Of a stretch of DNA of 64,000 bases, positions 45,496 to 61,705 are shown in pieces. A program made the position numbers and the translations under genes. The notes below the pieces were generated by a model. That model worked only from the letters and a program-made list of their open reading frames with translations, was not told the origin of the DNA and made no database searches. The stretch covers positions 192,166 to 256,165 of the forward strand of contig JAKLGJ010000004.1 in the NCBI GenBank assembly GCA_022710715.1, written 5' to 3'. Positions within the stretch are counted from its first letter, which is position 1. Every line of letters begins with the position of its first letter. Source of the stretch: Candidatus Omnitrophota bacterium (GTDB taxonomy: Bacteria > Omnitrophota > Gorgyraeia > Gygaellales > Profunditerraquicolaceae).

Positions 45496-46812
45496 ATGGC
45501 AAAACAGAAAACAATCGCGAAGGAAACAAGCATTCAGGGCGTGGGGCTGCATACCGGCCAGCGCGCGCGCGTAGTCTTCAAGCCTGCCGCTGCCGACAGC
45601 GGTATTCAATTCGTGCGCACGGATTTGCCGGCGCAGCCGGTGATCCGCGTCGGCATGGACGCTCCCATAGAACGTTCGGGCAGCCTGCGCTGCAGTTTCC
45701 TGGGACAGGCGGAGAACCAGATCCAGACGGTAGAGCATCTGCTGGCGGCATTGAACGGTCTGGGTATCGATACCATACGCATCGAGGTCGACGCCAGCGA
45801 GATCCCGGGGATGGACGGCAGCAGCAAAGAGTTCTGCGAGCTCCTGGAGAAAGCGGGTATCCGGGAACTGGAAGCCGATGCCCGGACTATCGCCGTGAAG
45901 GAGCCGATCGTCATTCAGGACAACCGGGCCAGCATCACGGCATTGCCCTATGACGGTTTGAAGATTTCTTACACGTTGAGTTACGATCATCCTTTTCTGC
46001 AGGCCCAGTTCCTCGAAATGGAGATTACGCCTGCGGTATTCAAACAGCACCTGGCCGCCGCCAGGACCTTTTGTCTGGAAGACGAAGTGGAGCATCTGCG
46101 CACCAAAGGGTTCGGTAAAGGCGCCAATTACGACAATACCCTGGTGGTCGGCAAAAAAGGGGTGATCAGGAACAGTTTGCGTTACCCCGATGAATTCGTG
46201 CGCCACAAAATTCTCGACCTGATCGGCGATATTTACAGCCGGGGCGTGGCGGTCAAAGGTCATATTATCGCTTTGCGCAGCGGTCATTCCCTGAACATCC
46301 AGCTGGTCAAGCGGATACTGGCGCAGCAGAGTGCGGCCGTTCCCGCGGTGCCGGAATCCCGGGAAGTCATTCCGGGCTCCGGATTGGATGTCAACCAGAT
46401 CATGAAGATTATCCCGCACCGGGAACCGTTTTTATTCGTGGACCGGATCATTTCGCTGGAACCCGGCAAGAGTATCGTGGGTATCAAGAACGTCACCATC
46501 AACGATTACTTCTTCCGGGGGCATTTCCCGGGCAAACCCGTTATGCCGGGCGTGCTCATTATCGAAGCCATGGCCCAGGTCGGCGGAGTGATGATGCTTT
46601 CCCAGCCGGGCAACCAGGGAAAGATCGCTTTTTTCATGCTTATCAATAACGCTAAATTCAGGAAAGTAGTCGTTCCCGGCGATCAGCTGGTATTCGAGGT
46701 GAGGTCGCTGCGGGTAAAATCAAGGATCGGCCAGCTCTATGGCACGGCATCCGTCGACGGAAAAGTGGTCGCAGAAGCGGAATTGACCTGCGCCCTTGAT
46801 GAATCGTCTTAA
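45496..46812 (+). CDS. lpxC-fabZ: Bifunctional UDP-3-O-acyl-GlcNAc deacetylase / 3-hydroxyacyl-ACP dehydratase (LpxC-FabZ fusion)
   Basis: N-terminal LpxC (zinc ligands HKxLD) fused to a C-terminal FabZ hotdog (GHFPGKPVMPGVLIIEAMAQ). Confidence 0.85.
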   Translation: MAKQKTIAKETSIQGVGLHTGQRARVVFKPAAADSGIQFVRTDLPAQPVIRVGMDAPIERSGSLRCSFLGQAENQIQTVEHLLAALNGLGIDTIRIEVDASEIPGMDGSSKEFCELLEKAGIRELEADARTIAVKEPIVIQDNRASITALPYDGLKISYTLSYDHPFLQAQFLEMEITPAVFKQHLAAARTFCLEDEVEHLRTKGFGKGANYDNTLVVGKKGVIRNSLRYPDEFVRHKILDLIGDIYSRGVAVKGHIIALRSGHSLNIQLVKRILAQQSAAVPAVPESREVIPGSGLDVNQIMKIIPHREPFLFVDRIISLEPGKSIVGIKNVTINDYFFRGHFPGKPVMPGVLIIEAMAQVGGVMMLSQPGNQGKIAFFMLINNAKFRKVVVPGDQLVFEVRSLRVKSRIGQLYGTASVDGKVVAEAELTCALDESS

Positions 46813-49684: not shown

Positions 49685-49838
49685 GGATGATAGCTGCGCC
49701 TGTCCCTGCAGATGTGCTGCGCACATCTATGCGCAGGGACACGGCGCGAAACGGATCATAGCTGCGCCTGCCCCTGCAGATGTGCTGCGCACATCTATGC
49801 GCAGGGACACGGCGCGAAACGGATCATAGCTGCGCCTG
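49685..49838 (+). repeat. Tandem 68 bp direct repeat (2.26 copies) ending in the tRNA-Arg 5' end
   Basis: Units begin at 49685, 49753 and 49821 (period 68). Each carries GGAT(G/C)ATAGCTGCGCCTG, identical to the tRNA-Arg leader plus first 7 nt, then a 39 nt hairpin GTCCCTGCAGATGTGC-TGC-GCACATCT-ATGC-GCAGGGAC (49702-49740 and 49770-49808). The third unit continues into the real tRNA. Confidence 0.8.
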
Positions 49839-49905
49839 TAGCTCAATTGGATAGAGCGCCAGCCTTCGGAGCTGGGCGTTGCAGGTTCAAGTCCTGCCAG
49901 GCGCA
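49832..49905 (+). tRNA. tRNA-Arg (anticodon UCG)
   Basis: Cloverleaf: acceptor GCGCCTG/CAGGCGC, D stem GCTC/GAGC, anticodon stem CCAGC/GCTGG with loop CTTCGGA, T arm GCAGG-TTCAAGT-CCTGC. Confidence 0.8.
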
Positions 49906-49951
49906 TTGAGTTTGAGGAAGCCGGGAGCAGGGAAATTTTGTTGATTTGCTG

Positions 49952-49995: not shown

Positions 49996-50068
49996 GGGCC
50001 GCTAGCTCAATTGGTAGAGCAGGACCCTCTTAAGGTCAAGGTTCGTGGTTCGATTCCACGGCGGCTCA
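49996..50068 (+). tRNA. tRNA-Lys (anticodon CUU)
   Basis: Cloverleaf: acceptor GGGCCGC/GCGGCTC (one G-U pair), D stem GCTC/GAGC, anticodon loop CTCTTAA, T arm CGTGG-TTCGATT-CCACG. There is a 27:43 G-A mismatch. Confidence 0.65.
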
Positions 50069-50084
50069 TTTATATTCTTTCCAG

Positions 50085-50513
50085 GTGGATCAGAGCACGT
50101 TCAAGATTATCGAGCATACCGCTGATATCGGTATCGAGGTCATCGGCGCACGCCTGGCGGATCTGTTTATCCATGCGGCTGAAGCGATGTTCTCGCTTAT
50201 CGCATCGCGTAAGACAGGCGTTTCTACGCGACGGACTGCGCGCACAATTCCCATCCACCTGGAGGCGGCAGACAGCGAAGAATTATTCATCGCATGGTTG
50301 AATGAACTCCTGTCTCTATCTGCCGTTAAAAACGTCATATTCTCTGATTTTCGTATAGACACAATCGACGATACTCATCTTAAAGGATCTGTCCGGGGAG
50401 AACCTGTCGCCCGGTATCGGATCACTACCGAGATCAAAGCGGCTACATTTCATGAACTGGCTCTGGAACATAGAGGTTCTTCCTGGAAAGCCAAGGTGAT
50501 TTTTGATGTCTGA
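50085..50513 (+). CDS. Archease (RtcB activator)
   Basis: EHTADIG motif near the N-terminus; about 140 aa. GTG start. Confidence 0.8.
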   Translation: MDQSTFKIIEHTADIGIEVIGARLADLFIHAAEAMFSLIASRKTGVSTRRTARTIPIHLEAADSEELFIAWLNELLSLSAVKNVIFSDFRIDTIDDTHLKGSVRGEPVARYRITTEIKAATFHELALEHRGSSWKAKVIFDV

Positions 50514-50805
50514 AGAGAGTTCCGGCGGCGGGATGGAAAAAAGGCAATTCCCCAGGGTGGAGGTCAACACCGCGGTCAAGTTCTCTGTAGTCATGCCGGC
50601 AGTAGAAGAAGGCATTTCCAAGGACATCAGTCAGGGAGGTTTGTGCCTTCACACCAAAAGAGCCCTGGTGCAAGGAACCATCCTGCATGTGGATTTCGAC
50701 CTGCCGGGAGACCCGCCGGTGCATGTTGAAGCGCTGGGAAAAGTCGTCTGGCAGCGCACCGATCCCGACGGCAGCTTCGCTACCGGGATAAAATTTATCA
50801 GTTAA
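50506..50805 (+). CDS. PilZ domain (c-di-GMP-binding) protein
   Basis: QFPRVEV (RxxxR-like) and DISQGG (DxSxxG) PilZ motifs. The ATG at 50506 overlaps the archease stop; an alternative start is at 50533. Confidence 0.65.
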   Translation: MSEESSGGGMEKRQFPRVEVNTAVKFSVVMPAVEEGISKDISQGGLCLHTKRALVQGTILHVDFDLPGDPPVHVEALGKVVWQRTDPDGSFATGIKFIS

Positions 50806-50816
50806 ATCAGATACAG

Positions 50817-53807
50817 ATGAGCGATCTTTGGCAGGGAACGTTGGAGAAAGTCGACGATTTTCGCTGGCGCATCCCGCCTTCCTATAAGCCCGGCATGCGC
50901 GTGCCGGGCCTTATTTATGCCGACGAGAAGCTCTTAAAAGACATTCTCCGCGACAAAGCCGCGGAGCAGGTCGCCAATGTGGCGTTCCTGCCGGGGATCA
51001 TCAACGCTTCTCTGGCCATGCCGGATATTCACTGGGGCTATGGTTTCCCCATCGGCGGCGTCGCAGCGACGGATATCGAGGCCGGAGGAGTGATCTCGCC
51101 CGGCGGCGTTGGGTTCGATATCAACTGCCTTACCGCTGAATCGCGCGTCTTGCATGCTTTCGGCTATTCTCTGCGTATTGCCGATCTTGAACAGACCTGG
51201 CGGACGAATCGGTTAGCGGTCATGGATTTCCGCCGGGGCAGAAAAGAGGATGCGGCGATCTGCGCGTATATCAAGATGGCGCCGCGAGAAAAGCTCTTTG
51301 AGATAACTACGGTAACGGGGAGGAAAATAAAAGCCACGGCAGATCATCCTTTCTGGACGCAGGACGGCATGGTGCCTCTGAAACGGCTTGCGGCAGGCAA
51401 TCGTGTAGCCCTGTACCCTTTTGAAGGTGTGCCTTTCGAGAAACCGGGCGGGGAGATCATTGTCGACGAAGAAGACGTAGTGCGGTTGCTTGCAGCGCTT
51501 AAAAAGGACTCGGGCGGCAATGCCGGTATCCAGGTTTTGAATCATCTGAAAAAAAGAGGCCTTTTACCGTTGCGCTACGATTCGCCGGCGTTGCCTTATT
51601 TGATCAAGATAGCGGGGTATTGTATCGGCGACGGTAATATCCATTTTGCTAAAAGCCGCGGCAAAGGAGTGACCGGATTCTGGGGGAAGAAAGAAGACCT
51701 GGAGCTCATTCGTAAAGATGTCGCGAAAACCGGGTTCACTTGCTCGCGGGTGTACCGGCGCAACCGCCGGCATGCAATCAACACCCCCTATGATTTGGTT
51801 CAATTCGAGCATCTGGAAGAGTCCTGCAAGGTCGTTTCCAGTTCTTTTTCCGTATTATTGATCTTATTGGGCTGTCCATATGGCAATAAGGCGGAGAAGC
51901 CGTTTTCTGTTCCGCGATGGCTATTCAAAGCTCCGCTTTGGCAGAAGAGATTGTTCCTGGCAGCTTACTTCGGGGCGGAAATGTCATCGCCGAAATCTTT
52001 TCGCGAGCAGGGATATAATCTCTATTGTCCCGTAGTTTCAATGAACAAGAACGGGCTTCTAGCCGACGATGCTATCGCGTTTTTCAAAGATATTTCCACC
52101 CTGTTGACCGAGTTCGGGGTCAGGACGGTCGCGATCAGCGAAAGTCACTCCGGATTTACCAGGAAAGGGACTTTCAACTATCGTATACGGTTGATCCTGG
52201 CCAGCAAAACCGAAGATCTGATAACACTGTACAGCAGGGTAGGATTTGAGTATAATCTTCACCGCAGTTTCCTGGCTAATGCCGCTATTCAGTTCTTGAA
52301 ATACAAACAGCGGATACTCCGGGAACGCGAGGAGAAAAGCGTTCAGGCACAGCGTTTGCATGCCCGGGGCTTCAGTCCCGCCCAGATTACCGAGAGTATC
52401 GGCTCGGAATTCGTGAATCGCCGGTTCATTGAAAGATCTGTTTATGAAGGCAGGAAAACGGGCCCACGCATAAGTTCCGCGGCGTTGAATTTCGTCAGCT
52501 TTATGGATGAGAATACCGCGGGATTAGAGATGTCCGGCATGCTCTGGGACGCGATCGAGACGATCGAAGAATCGGCGTCTCCGGAGTATGTATACGATTT
52601 TACTGTAGGGCATCGGGATCATAATTTTGTTGCCGACACTTTCGTGGTTTCTAACTGCGGGGTCAGGTTGTTGACCACCAACCTGCGCTACGATGACGTC
52701 AAAGACAGGATCAAAGATTTAACCTGCCGGCTCTTTAACGCTATTCCCACCGGCGTCGGATCGAAAGGCGATATCCGGATCAGCGAGAAGGAAGAGCGCA
52801 AGCTCCTGGTCGAAGGAGCGGGTTGGGCGGTCAAACAGGGTTTCGGGGTCCAGGAAGATCTGGAGTGCACTGAAGAATCCGGCGCGATCCAGGGCGCGGA
52901 TCCCGCGGCAGTTTCCGAACGCGCCTATGAGCGCGGCAAGGCCCAATCGGGCACGCTGGGTTCAGGCAACCATTTCCTGGAAGTGCAGGTGATCGACCAG
53001 TTGTATAACCGCGACGCCTGCGATGCCCTTAATCTTGACCAGGGACAGATCACCCTCATGATCCATTCCGGCTCGCGCGGTCTGGGGTATCAGATCTGCG
53101 ACGATTACGTCCGGTCGATGGTGCGTTGTCTGGACAAGTATAAGATCGAAGTGCCGGACCGCCAGCTGGCCTGCGCGCCGGTAACCTCGCCGGAAGGGAA
53201 AGCTTATCTGGCCGCGATGCGCTGCGCGGCCAACTATGCCTGGGCCAACCGGCAATGCCTGATGCATCTGGCGCGGTTGACGTTCCAGGAGTTCTTCGGG
53301 ACTCCCTGGCAGAAGATGCAGATGCGCCTGGTGTATGATGTGGCGCATAACATCGCCAAGATCGAAAAACACACGGTGAACGGGCAGCTCAAGAATGTCT
53401 GCGTGCATCGCAAAGGGGCGACCCGCGCGTTCGGCCCCGGGCATCCGGAACTGCCGCAGCGGTATCGTCAGATGGGCCAGCCGGTGATCATCCCCGGCGA
53501 TATGGGGCGCAATTCTTACTTATTGGTCGGCACGCAGCAAGCGATGGAAGAAACATTCGGCAGCACCTGCCACGGCGCGGGCCGGGTGATGTCGCGCAGC
53601 GCCGCGACCCGGTCCATCGACAGCCGGCAGTTGCTTAAAGATCTGGAATCGAAAGGTATTACGGTGATGGCTGCCGGCAGAGGCACGCTGGTGGAAGAGG
53701 CGCCGGAAGTTTACAAGAACGTCAATGACGTGGTTGATGTAGTGCACAAGGCCGGGCTGTCCACCCGGGTGTGCAGGATGAGACCCCTGGGAGTGATTAA
53801 AGGATAA
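50817..53807 (+). CDS. rtcB: RNA-splicing ligase RtcB interrupted by a large intein
   Basis: Exteins carry GFDIN|[14 protein letters not shown] and GSTCHGAGR RtcB motifs. 996 aa versus about 480 for canonical RtcB. Confidence 0.9.
51126..52655 (+). mobile_element. RtcB intein (510 aa) with LAGLIDADG homing-endonuclease domain
   Basis: Starts with Cys (CLTAESRVL) and block B TADHPF. LAGLIDADG-like [14 protein letters not shown] and [10 protein letters not shown]. Block [16 protein letters not shown] and block G TFVVSN followed by +1 Cys. The penultimate residue is Ser rather than His. Confidence 0.85.
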
Positions 53808-53833: not shown

Positions 53834-55102
53834 ATGCTGGATATGCGATTCATACGCGAGAACGCGGATCTGGTCAAAACGGCTTTGCAGAAGCGTAATT
53901 CCAAATTCGACCTGGACAGTGTCCTGCGGGTCGACGACGACCGGCGCAAAGTGCTGGGCGAAGTGGAAGCTTTACGCGCCCGGCAGAATAAAGCCAACGA
54001 CGAGATCAGCGCATTGTTGAAAGCCAAACAGGATCCCAAAGAAACGATCGCTTCGATGAAAGAGATCTCCCGCCAGATCAACGAACTGGAAGGCCAGTTA
54101 GCGCTCAAGGAAGCGGATCTGAACAAACTTCTTCTGACCATCCCGAACGTGCCGCATGAGTCGGTTCCCGTCGGCGCGCCGGATAAAGCGGTGATCGTCC
54201 GCAACTGGGGTACGCCCCGGCAGTTCGATTTCAAACCGCAGAGTCACGTCGAGCTGTGCGAGAATCTGGATATCGTGGATTTTGCCCGCGCCACCAAGAT
54301 CAGCGGTTCGAATTTCCTGCTTTTCAAAGGATGGGGCGCCAAGCTTGAGCGGGCGTTGTTCAACTTCATGCTCGATCTGCATACTTCCAGGCACGGATAT
54401 ACCGAGATCTTTCCGCCGTATCTGGTCAATCGTAAAACCATGACCGGGACCGGGCAGCTGCCCAAGATGGAAGAGGACATGTACCGGCTTAAAGATGAAG
54501 ACATGTTCCTGATCCCGACCGCAGAAGTGCCGGTGACCAATATCTACGGAGACGAGATCCTTAACGAGGATGATCTGCCCCGGTACCTGACCGCCTATAC
54601 CGCCTGTTTTAGAAGAGAAGCGGGTTCTTACGGCAAGGACACGCGCGGGATGATGCGCGTTCATCAGTTCGACAAGGTGGAGATGGTGAAGTTCGTCAAA
54701 CCGGAAAACTCATACGCGGAACTGGAAACGCTGGTCAATAACGCGGAGACCGTATTGCAGCTGCTGGGTTTGCCTTACCGGGTGGTGGCGTTGTCTTCGC
54801 AGGATATCAGCTTTGCCGCCGCCAAATGTTACGATCTGGAAGCCTGGGCGCCGGGCACGGATAAATGGCTGGAAGTGTCGAGCTGTTCGAATTTCGAAGG
54901 GTTTCAGGCGCGGCGGGCGAATATCCGTTTCCGCCGGAAAGATACGAAGAAAGTCGAATTCGTGCATACCCTGAACGGGTCAGGGGTAGCGCTGGCGCGC
55001 ACGGTGATCGCCATCCTGGAAAATTATCAGCAAAAGGACGGTTCCATCATCATACCCGAAGTCTTAAGGAGATACCTCGATGGCAAAGAAACCATTTCCT
55101 AG
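53834..55102 (+). CDS. serS: Seryl-tRNA synthetase
   Basis: N-terminal coiled coil and class II aaRS motifs 2/3 (FRRE, GSGxA). Confidence 0.9.
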
Positions 55103-55811
55103 GGATTTTGACGCGGGCCCGCAGGGGCAGGACGCACCTGATTTCAGTCAGCTTGATCCGGGACTCGATTCCGGCGGCGACATAAAGTCGAAAGGGAGGA
55201 TGTTCGCCGAGAAAGTCGCCAGCGTGATCAAATTCGTGCTGGGATTGATCCTGCTGGTGGTGGTTTATGCCGGCACGCGGGCGTTCCTGGATGAATTCAA
55301 TACCCTGGATAAAATGATCAAGTCGTATTTCTGGTGGGGGGTGTTGAGTTTCGTGCTTTTTCATTTCTTCGTTTTTGAGCCGGCGATCGTCTATCAAAAG
55401 GGACAGAAGCTGCTGGCGTTTGTCTTTAAATTCTTTGCGCCGCTGGTGAAAGTCGCGCCGTTCGTCCTGCCCATCTACGCCCTTGTGTTATTGTGCGTGT
55501 ATCCTTTGTTGATGCTTTTGAATTCAACGCGCCAGGATATGGTCACGCTGTATTGCGTGTTCACTCTGGGATTGACCATGGCTCTGCATATTGTTTTCAG
55601 CGCCAAGACATTGCGTTCCCGCCAGGGCGACTTTTTGAAGGCGAATTATCTGTTCGGTTTTTCGCTGGTATATGTGATCAACCTGTTTATACTGGGATTC
55701 GCTTTGAATCTGTTGTTCGCGGAGTTCTCCTTCCTGGATTTCTTCACCGGGATGTCCAGGATCGCCCACGGCATCTATTACGCGGTGGTCAAGCAGGTGT
55801 TCGCACTGTGA
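55080..55811 (+). CDS. Polytopic membrane protein of unknown function
   Basis: About 6 predicted TM helices and no known motif. Overlaps the serS 3' end. Confidence 0.5.
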
Positions 55812-55953: not shown

Positions 55954-56043
55954 CGACTGAGCGAAGCGCAGGAGTCCCGTGAACGCAGTGAACGGGAAAT
56001 GCGCTTGCGCATCGTCAGGCGATGCCAATGGCGGAATCTTTCT

Positions 56044-56130
56044 GGTGGGGTGGCAGAGCGGTTGAATGCGGCAGTCTTGAAAACTGTTAAGGGCGCAAGT
56101 CCTTCGAGAGTTCGAATCTCTCCCCCACCG
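56044..56130 (+). tRNA. tRNA-Ser (anticodon UGA)
   Basis: Class II tRNA: acceptor GGTGGGG/CCCCACC, 3 bp D stem with an 11 nt loop, anticodon loop CTTGAAA, 18 nt variable arm, T arm GAGAG-TTCGAAT-CTCTC. Confidence 0.8.
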
Positions 56131-56341
56131 TTTATTTTCAACGGGTTACACCATGATGTTATTGGTAAACAATTCGACGGTGTCCCCGGCAGTATGCCTG
56201 CCTCGGTTCTTTCCGGAATGTGCTTAAAAAGCGGTTCTTTCCTCCGGGCGAAGTGACGGTCGGGGCGGCAATAGTGCAGTTAAGCCTAATGCTGACAATA
56301 ACTAATATCTTTTTTTCGCATCGGGATCTTTAAACTATCTC

Positions 56342-59899: not shown

Positions 59900-61705
59900 A
59901 TGCGTGTTTTGATAAGGAGCAGAGAACCGGTGTCGCAAACACAACTTGACGTCAAATTGCTGGAAGTCACCGATAACGCCCTGGCGATCATTTACGCCGC
60001 CTGCCGGCAGTGCTATTCCGATAAATTTGCCGGCGATATCTTTGACGACGGCAGCGCCGATCCCGGCAAAGCCGGGGAGTTCATCCGTAAAGTGGTCGCT
60101 TCCGGCCATGAAAGCCCGCTCGAGCATGCTAAATTCACCTTTGCTATCCAGGGCGTGTCGCGGGCGCTGACCCATCAGCTGGTGCGTCACCGGATCGCTT
60201 CTTTCTGTTTAACGGGAGATACGATAATCAAGGGAGCACGGAATGACAGTGCTCGGTCGTATAAAAAGTATACCTTGAAATCGTTGTATGAGAGAATGCT
60301 GACCCCGCACGGCAGGTCTCGTTTAAAACTGATCAGGTTGAATGCTTACGATGAGCAGGGGAAGGTATTTGATCGGGGGAAGATCAAAACAATTCTGTAC
60401 ACCGGCAGGCAAATGGTATGGCGGGTGAAGTTGACTAACGGCCAGAGCATAAAAGCCACGATTAATCATCGGTTTTTAACGCGAGATGGCTGGTTGCCTT
60501 TGGAAGATATTATACGCGTCAGACCTCAACTGGGCGTTAACGGTATTGCTTGCCGGCATCCGAGTTTTGCTGTGCTTAGAAACAGGCAATGGCTGGAGGA
60601 GCAATATAGTCTCAAGAATCTGAAGCAAGAAACTATTGCGAAGCTGATTGGATGCTCCGGTCATACGGTGAGAAGCTGGGTATTCAAGCATGGTTTACAG
60701 AAAGAAATCGGCGGTTTGCATGGGCATCCTCCCAATCGTGGATATCATTGGAAGCTTAATCGCAATCGCACCCTTGAGGAGAAAAAGGCGATTTCCGAGA
60801 GGATGAAAGGCCCGCGCAATCCTATGTGGAAGGGGGGAGTTACGCGGTTGGACGTTACCTTGCGCAAAATGGTATCTCCCGAAGTCCGTAAGGACATTTA
60901 TAGGCGAGATGGTTTTCAATGTCGCCTGTGCAAGCAGGTTGGAGGCCGTTTGACGCTGCATCATCGGGTGCCGCTCTATGTCAATCCGGTCGACCCGGCG
61001 GATACAGATAATTTAGTGACTCTTTGCAGGAAATGCCATTTTAAAGTGAACAATCATGAAATGGAATATATGAATATTTTCGGAATTGACCCTATACCCT
61101 ATCATGCCAGGTCAAGCGGTTGTTTTCGAGTCATAAAATGGGTAGAGATAGCCAGTATTGAGTGTGCAGGGATCGAAGACACGTACGATATAGAGATGCA
61201 GGCTCCGCACCATAATTTTGTAGCCAACGGTTTTGTCGTTCATAATTCACAGCAGTCGCAACGCTATGTCAAGGAGTCCCAGTTCGATTACATCATCCCG
61301 CCTTCCATCGAGAAGGATCCGCGCAAGAAAGAGGTTTTTCTCCAGACCATGAAGGAGATACAGGAACAGTACAATAAACTGCTCGCGTTGTACAAAGAAG
61401 GCGGACAGCAGGGGGAAGTCGCCAACCAGGACGCGCGTTTTGTCCTGCCGCAGGCCGCCGAGACCAAAATCGTGGTAAGCATGAACTGCCGGGAATTGCT
61501 GCATTTTTTCAAGCACCGCTGCTGCGTGCGGGCCCAGTGGGAGATCCGGGCTTTAGCCGGCCGCATGCTGGCCATGGCCAGGGAGAAACTGCCCGAAATC
61601 TTCGGCGCCGCCGGCGCGAAGTGCGAATCGCTTGGGTATTGTCCGGAAGGGGAGAAATTCAGCTGCGGTAAATATCCCTCCAAAGATAAAGTCCTGAAAG
61701 TGTAA
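59900..61705 (+). CDS. thyX: Flavin-dependent thymidylate synthase ThyX interrupted by an intein
   Basis: The ThyX signature RHRIASF|SQQSQRY is split by the insert. Remaining exteins total about 254 aa. Confidence 0.88.
   Translation: MRVLIRSREPVSQTQLDVKLLEVTDNALAIIYAACRQCYSDKFAGDIFDDGSADPGKAGEFIRKVVASGHESPLEHAKFTFAIQGVSRALTHQLVRHRIASFCLTGDTIIKGARNDSARSYKKYTLKSLYERMLTPHGRSRLKLIRLNAYDEQGKVFDRGKIKTILYTGRQMVWRVKLTNGQSIKATINHRFLTRDGWLPLEDIIRVRPQLGVNGIACRHPSFAVLRNRQWLEEQYSLKNLKQETIAKLIGCSGHTVRSWVFKHGLQKEIGGLHGHPPNRGYHWKLNRNRTLEEKKAISERMKGPRNPMWKGGVTRLDVTLRKMVSPEVRKDIYRRDGFQCRLCKQVGGRLTLHHRVPLYVNPVDPADTDNLVTLCRKCHFKVNNHEMEYMNIFGIDPIPYHARSSGCFRVIKWVEIASIECAGIEDTYDIEMQAPHHNFVANGFVVHNSQQSQRYVKESQFDYIIPPSIEKDPRKKEVFLQTMKEIQEQYNKLLALYKEGGQQGEVANQDARFVLPQAAETKIVVSMNCRELLHFFKHRCCVRAQWEIRALAGRMLAMAREKLPEIFGAAGAKCESLGYCPEGEKFSCGKYPSKDKVLKV
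60206..61246 (+). mobile_element. ThyX intein (347 aa) with HNH homing-endonuclease domain
   Basis: Starts with Cys (CLTGDTII), block B-like KATINHRF, an HNH module (CRLC...HHRVP...N...CRKCH), block F YDIEMQAPHHNFVA and block G GFVVHN followed by +1 Ser. Confidence 0.85.

Follow-up and report, generated by a model that had tools for sequence, protein, structure and literature searches.

Inteins lodged in the 3'-phosphate/5'-OH RNA ligase RtcB have been met before. NCBIfam holds a curated 'exception' model for them, NF038162 ('intein-containing RtcB family protein', RtcB_rel_intein), and in the RtcB of the archaeon Pyrococcus horikoshii (Pho; PH1602) Cys98 is the splice junction (PMC4150793). 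In this study, we examined a 64,000-nucleotide stretch of contig JAKLGJ010000004.1 from a Candidatus Omnitrophota assembly (the window), in which an rtcB open reading frame (ORF) at 50817-53807 on the plus strand encodes 996 amino acids (aa) plus a stop codon. Very probably, it holds a canonical class-1 'large' intein with a LAGLIDADG homing endonuclease in a bacterial RtcB, the host being an uncultured, Candidatus Omnitrophota-like organism. Residues 9-996 of the protein match positions 2-961 of NF038162 with 1222.6 bits, against a curated cutoff of 1150, and the intein falls in the same segment of the model (95-578). Apart from an excess of about 26 aa in the window intein over that segment, nothing substantive sets the two apart.

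Given the Cys98 junction of the Pho protein, the window intein sits at the classic allelic site. The two share host protein and insertion point, a likeness drawn from the site and the extein alone, and they differ in that one host is an archaeon and the other a bacterium; a search of the open-access literature did not return a primary description of the PH1602 intein. The large inteins of LAGLIDADG type PI-PfuI (1DQ3), PI-PkoII (2CW7/2CW8), TliVMA (7QSS) and PI-SceI (1LWS) are 9-18% identical to the window intein and occupy hosts other than RtcB, namely ribonucleotide reductase, DNA polymerase and V-ATPase. The accessory module of the window intein is C-terminal, helical and helix-turn-helix (HTH)-like, and need not be equivalent to the stirrup or the DNA recognition region (DRR). 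The Npu DnaE intein has an identical Ser-Asn/Cys junction, which shows that efficient splicing can go with a penultimate Ser; it differs in its host, DnaE, and in being a naturally split mini-intein that lacks an endonuclease.

Results

The rtcB reading frame is unbroken over 2,988 nt. A first-pass annotation, made from the letters and their ORFs, had proposed that the conserved GFDIN/CGVRLL motif is split by a 510 aa insert, and this insert was located at aa 104-613 (51126-52655; all parts of the gene are on the plus strand), where it runs from Cys1 to a terminal Asn. The N-extein (aa 1-103, 50817-51125) ends in GFDIN and the C-extein (aa 614-996, 52656-53804) starts at the +1 Cys614; the junctions read GFDIN/C at aa 99-104 and VVSN/CGVRL at aa 610-618, the insert itself beginning with CLTAES. 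The GC content of the insert is 0.51 vs. 0.59-0.60 in the exteins. In silico deletion of the insert leaves a conserved and contiguous RtcB of 486 aa in which GFDINCGVRL is restored. The joined exteins (1-103 plus 614-996) match the Pfam RtcB model (PF01139) end to end, at positions 1-426 of 426 (E = 5.5e-178), and align to residues 5-481 of P. horikoshii RtcB (1UC2, E = 1e-171; 4DWR and 7LFQ likewise E = 1e-171). A contiguous GxDxN-CGxR was found in 69 intein-less RtcB homologues.

The active site of the joined protein is complete. Asp101, in the N-extein, corresponds to Pho Asp95, a Mn2 ligand; in the C-extein, Cys614 corresponds to Cys98, the metal ligands His719, His750 and His844 to His203, His234 and His329, and His919 to His404 (roles from PMC9745838). 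In the Pho enzyme, no step survives mutation of Cys98, which bridges the two Mn ions (Mn1 and Mn2); the nucleophile that becomes guanylylated is His404 (PMC9745838). The +1 Cys is therefore an essential metal ligand and not the covalent catalyst. The exact 996 aa protein was called on 7 contigs of independent public assemblies, among them a 1.62 Mb Joint Genome Institute (JGI) contig and an NCBI metagenome-assembled genome (MAG), with the same gene context every time; the insertion is therefore real, and an assembly chimera was ruled out.

The two ends of the insert build the Hint fold of a class-1 intein. The N-terminal lobe (intein aa 1-113, 51126-51464) holds block A with Cys1 and block B with T71-A-D-H74; the C-terminal lobe (intein aa 470-510, 52533-52655) holds block F (YD491FTVGHRDH499N) and block G (FVVS509N510) and is matched by NCBIfam intein_Cterm (TIGR01443), as the other end is by intein_Nterm (TIGR01445). 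The Pfam model Intein_splicing (PF14890) covers insert residues 13-510 (E = 4.8e-16); this match and that to NF038162 lie far beyond what chance would give. Blocks A, B (TADH), F and G, read from the sequence at first pass, are thus present. A profile of 18 aligned inteins matched dozens of solved inteins through segments 1-98 and 466-510, the best being the Ssp DnaB intein (6e-16); against PDB sequences it reached the Hint halves only, with no match for the central domain. An AlphaFold2 model computed on the same 18-homologue alignment is of high confidence, with a predicted local distance difference test (pLDDT) score of 93.3 and a predicted template modeling (pTM) score of 0.92.

Although the 18 inteins are otherwise only 38-63% identical, all of them keep C1, H74, G168-D169-G170, A284-E285, D491, H499-N500 and S509-N510. 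Block B T71 (T174 in the full-length protein) is at least 90% conserved and H74 (H177) is invariant. At the C-terminal end, the invariant Asn (N613) is followed by the +1 C614. The residues needed for splicing, Cys1, Thr71/His74, Asp491, His499, Asn510 and the +1 Cys, are all present, and we infer from them that the intein splices.

Between the Hint lobes, the AlphaFold2 model has two successive alpha-beta-beta-alpha-beta-beta-alpha units. These are LAGLIDADG half-domain 1 (intein aa 156-247, 51591-51866), with the invariant G168-D169-G170 at 51627-51635, and half-domain 2 (intein aa 264-372, 51915-52241), with the invariant A284-E285 at 51975-51980. The two LAGLIDADG-like helices reported at first pass were recovered here, as the motifs GYCIGD169G and YFGAE285 end helices H156-169 and H271-285 and their G-D-G and A-E are invariant in 18/18. 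PF14528 (LAGLIDADG_3) matches half of the aligned family members (9/18, best E = 3.2e-05). Following the half-domains is an extra module (intein aa 378-463, 52257-52514) consisting of one 36-residue helix followed by an HTH-like pair (SPAQITES / NRRFIERSV) in which R433-F434 is invariant; the module would serve as an accessory DNA-binding region. The model and the conserved motifs mark the nested domain as a LAGLIDADG homing endonuclease of the monomeric, two-motif kind, with Asp272 and Glu388 (full-length numbering) as its predicted catalytic residues, and it would be expected to cleave DNA.

A penultimate His (block G position 6) is highly conserved in class-1 inteins, yet it is not obligatory. 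In the window intein, the residue that aligns with the penultimate His of the DnaB and DnaX inteins is Ser612. The first-pass annotation was right that Ser occupies the His position, but its suggestion that splicing chemistry may be affected finds no support. Among homologues with a readable junction, 41 of 43 end in Ser-Asn, against one His-Asn (1/43) and one Tyr-Asn (1/43), and the Ser-Asn end recurs in 8/9 further genomic copies. This intein lineage has therefore conserved the Ser, whose frequency among the homologues rules it out as a sign of a defective intein. The Npu DnaE intein, much used for efficient trans-splicing, ends in GFIASN/CFN (PMC5092047), and several inteins that lack a penultimate His still splice (Chen, Benner & Perler 2000 and the Ssp DnaE structure, as cited in PMC4031507). 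Given these precedents, we see no grounds for supposing that the Ser impairs splicing chemistry.

Candidatus Omnitrophota MAGs are the nearest genomes, and in them the locus is found both with the insert and empty. The order LpxI - radical SAM - archease - PilZ - RtcB - SerRS - orf243 is common to intein-bearing (L001, L004) and intein-less (L016, L022, L015) loci, the latter belonging to a larger set of intein-less Omnitrophota alleles (L013-L030). Relatedness of the exteins does not follow that of the inteins. The extein of intein-bearing L001 is 75% identical to that of the window, whereas intein-less orthologues reach 78%; L004 has a 75% identical extein and an intein only 40% identical, while inteins hosted by Clostridia and Atribacteria reach 50-52%, the Clostridia one being at 52%. 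This disagreement points to repeated, independent invasion of one site. Together, the syntenic loci of both kinds and the intein/extein disagreement fit a mobile homing intein. Inteins also lie 3-17 GC points under their own extein in 10/10 hosts (L001-L011 and the window) whatever the host GC, with intein values of 31-65%. In the 48 bp around empty sites, codon positions 1 and 2 are highly conserved, as expected of a homing target within an active-site motif.

In the comparison with L001, the proportion of nonsynonymous differences (pN) is 0.15 across the intein, including the endonuclease domain, and that of synonymous differences (pS) is 0.73-0.75; the exteins have pN of 0.10-0.18 and pS of about 0.7. 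By this measure the whole intein, endonuclease included, is under purifying selection.

Homologous RtcB inteins occur in bacteria (Omnitrophota, Chloroflexi, Poribacteria, Armatimonadota, Atribacteria, Endomicrobia, Planctomycetota, Clostridia and the candidate phyla radiation, CPR) as well as in archaea (Thermoplasmata, Halobacteria, Methanomassiliicoccales and Woesearchaeota). The survey of Novikova et al. lists 27 bacterial and 10 archaeal RtcB inteins (PMC4760082). The view that RtcB inteins are mainly archaeal, taken in the first-pass annotation, is ruled out by that survey and by our homologue searches.

Other insertion points within RtcB were also observed. Intein homologues of about 38% identity occupy two further sites (P0041, P0076). 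One reads GYGF/C…VSN/CIGGVAA, about 25 residues upstream, with a +1 Cys in place of the usual Pro; the other, …VMIH/C…, comes right after the His aligned to the metal ligand Pho His234 (MIHSGSRG motif). Three RtcB genes of ~990 aa in Omnitrophota MAGs (L006, L007, L012) have an intact GxDINCGVRL, and their inserts therefore sit elsewhere. These sequences suggest that one intein lineage may have spread ectopically among the active-site motifs of RtcB.

The rtcB gene lies in a conserved neighborhood. An archease gene (50085-50513, plus strand; PF01951, E = 1.6e-35) is found two genes upstream, and archease adjoins RtcB in 64/80 related loci. Between the two is a PilZ-domain gene of 100 aa (50503-50805) that overlaps the end of archease; its product has apparent cyclic di-GMP (c-di-GMP)-binding motifs (RQFPR = RxxxR, DISQGG = DxSxxG), and the arrangement is kept in several Omnitrophota loci (L001, L004, L015, L016). 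A PilZ protein within an archease-RtcB operon hints at a possible c-di-GMP input into RNA repair. Next after rtcB is serS, followed by orf243 (243 aa, 55080-55811), whose reading frame overlaps the serS end and whose product matches no Pfam family. In 21 related loci a conserved counterpart (23-51% identity) lies downstream of serS, and the AT skew of the region is strongly negative (-0.3, plus strand). The genes for tRNA-Arg(TCG) (49831-49906) and tRNA-Lys(CTT) (49996-50068) are directly upstream of archease and that for tRNA-Ser(TGA) (56043-56131) is downstream of serS and orf243; with tRNA genes on both sides, the RtcB operon is embedded in a tRNA-related gene cluster.

The second intein that had been announced nearby lies 7.5 kb downstream of the RtcB intein, in the gene for the flavin-dependent thymidylate synthase ThyX (59900-61705). 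This intein (346 aa, aa 104-449, 60209-61246) splits the motif RHRIASF/SQQSQRY; its nuclease domain is of the HNH type, it ends in the canonical His-Asn, and the +1 residue is Ser. Its nuclease type is unrelated to the LAGLIDADG type of the RtcB intein, and that both inteins begin at precursor residue 104 is a coincidence. Thymidylate synthase (COG1351) is a bacterial intein host in Novikova et al. (PMC4760082). Farther upstream, an LpxC/FabZ fusion forms one ORF of 438 aa (45496-46812) in a BamA-Skp-LpxD-LpxC/FabZ-LpxA-LpxI cluster, and the organism is therefore diderm (Gram-negative-type).

Discussion

If the established class-1 pathway is taken over for this locus, the 996 aa precursor would have no ligase activity, since the intein holds two ligands of its binuclear Mn site, Asp101 and Cys614, 510 residues apart. 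Cys104, the Cys1 of the intein, would undergo an N-S acyl shift helped by block B Thr174/His177, the +1 Cys614 would attack the thioester (trans-thioesterification), and cyclization of Asn613 would free the intein. An S-N shift would then give an active RtcB of 486 aa with GFDINCGVRL whole again. The free 510 aa intein could cut the GGVGFDIN/CGVRL coding sequence of an intein-less rtcB and thereby bring about its own copying (homing).

Several points weigh against an intein that both splices and homes. For the 996 aa protein and its close homologues alike, splicing and cleavage are steps that we infer. The Pfam LAGLIDADG models gave no match at E <= 1 on either the window protein or the isolated intein, and fold searches and a family-wide scan were therefore needed. 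Synonymous sites are saturated relative to L001, so selection on the endonuclease domain is expressed as pN vs. pS and not as a numerical dN/dS ratio. Finally, L001 is equally distant in intein and in extein (74.1% and 74.9% identity), which may reflect long vertical inheritance and not recent homing.

Two of these points also favor an alternative in which the intein splices but its LAGLIDADG nuclease is inactive, the element being fixed and vertically inherited as a relic, or kept for support of the Hint fold or for DNA binding only. The near-equal identities to L001 fit long vertical co-inheritance, and the window copy scores under Pfam detection; the homing-cycle model, moreover, predicts loss of the nuclease once an intein is fixed. 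We nevertheless consider an inactive nuclease unlikely. The acidic metal-binding D169 and E285 and the Gly and Ala that flank them are invariant across inteins as divergent as the 18 aligned here, and the endonuclease domain shows a low pN against saturated pS. Empty orthologous sites are plentiful in the same phylum, and the intein/extein incongruence implies repeated invasion.

A different possibility is that redox state or metal gates splicing through Cys1 and the +1 Cys, the intein being kept as a post-translational regulator of RNA repair. There are cysteines at both junction nucleophile positions, Cys98 of the Pho enzyme is prone to oxidation and metals modulate that enzyme (PMC9745838), purifying selection acts equally strongly on intein and extein, and conditional splicing is known in other inteins (reviewed in PMC4031507 and PMC7765530). 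On the other hand, we see no sequence feature specific to regulation, closely related Omnitrophota work without the intein, and Cys1 with a +1 Cys is the commonest intein arrangement. Such a conditional switch is in our view quite improbable. More broadly, the whole lineage might be kept for more than selfish reasons, as a switch that holds RtcB inactive until the oxidation-sensitive +1 Cys is available, with the sites of P0041 and P0076 as selected control points. The grounds that can be named for this idea are the occurrence in many bacterial and archaeal phyla, the Ser-Asn/Cys junction and selection as strong as that on RtcB itself; we regard it as highly doubtful. A dead insertion (or pseudogene) or an artefact of metagenome assembly, to which only the insert's lower GC and its departure from the penultimate-residue consensus could lend color, is scarcely credible against the intact frame, the conservation of all splicing residues, the purifying selection on the exteins, the identical protein on the 7 contigs and the failure to see a second rtcB ORF in the region of the window examined.

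A splicing class-1 intein with a homing endonuclease thus remains the reading that we prefer. As such, the RtcB intein is a real but ordinary mobile element of an already known and curated kind, and what is known of inteins and of RtcB is left unchanged. The first-pass annotation was right about the insert and about its nature as an intein; what it put forward as out of the ordinary is ordinary. The window does bring together two types of intein within 10 kb, one with a LAGLIDADG nuclease (in RtcB) and the other with an HNH nuclease (in ThyX). In addition, the family-wide Ser-Asn/Cys junction could interest intein engineers, to whom it offers naturally occurring cis-splicing inteins that lack a penultimate His. 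For Candidatus Omnitrophota, the locus adds an example to a curated family, and its correct annotation is an intein-containing rtcB with a mature ligase of 486 aa, neither a 996 aa fusion nor an unusual RtcB.
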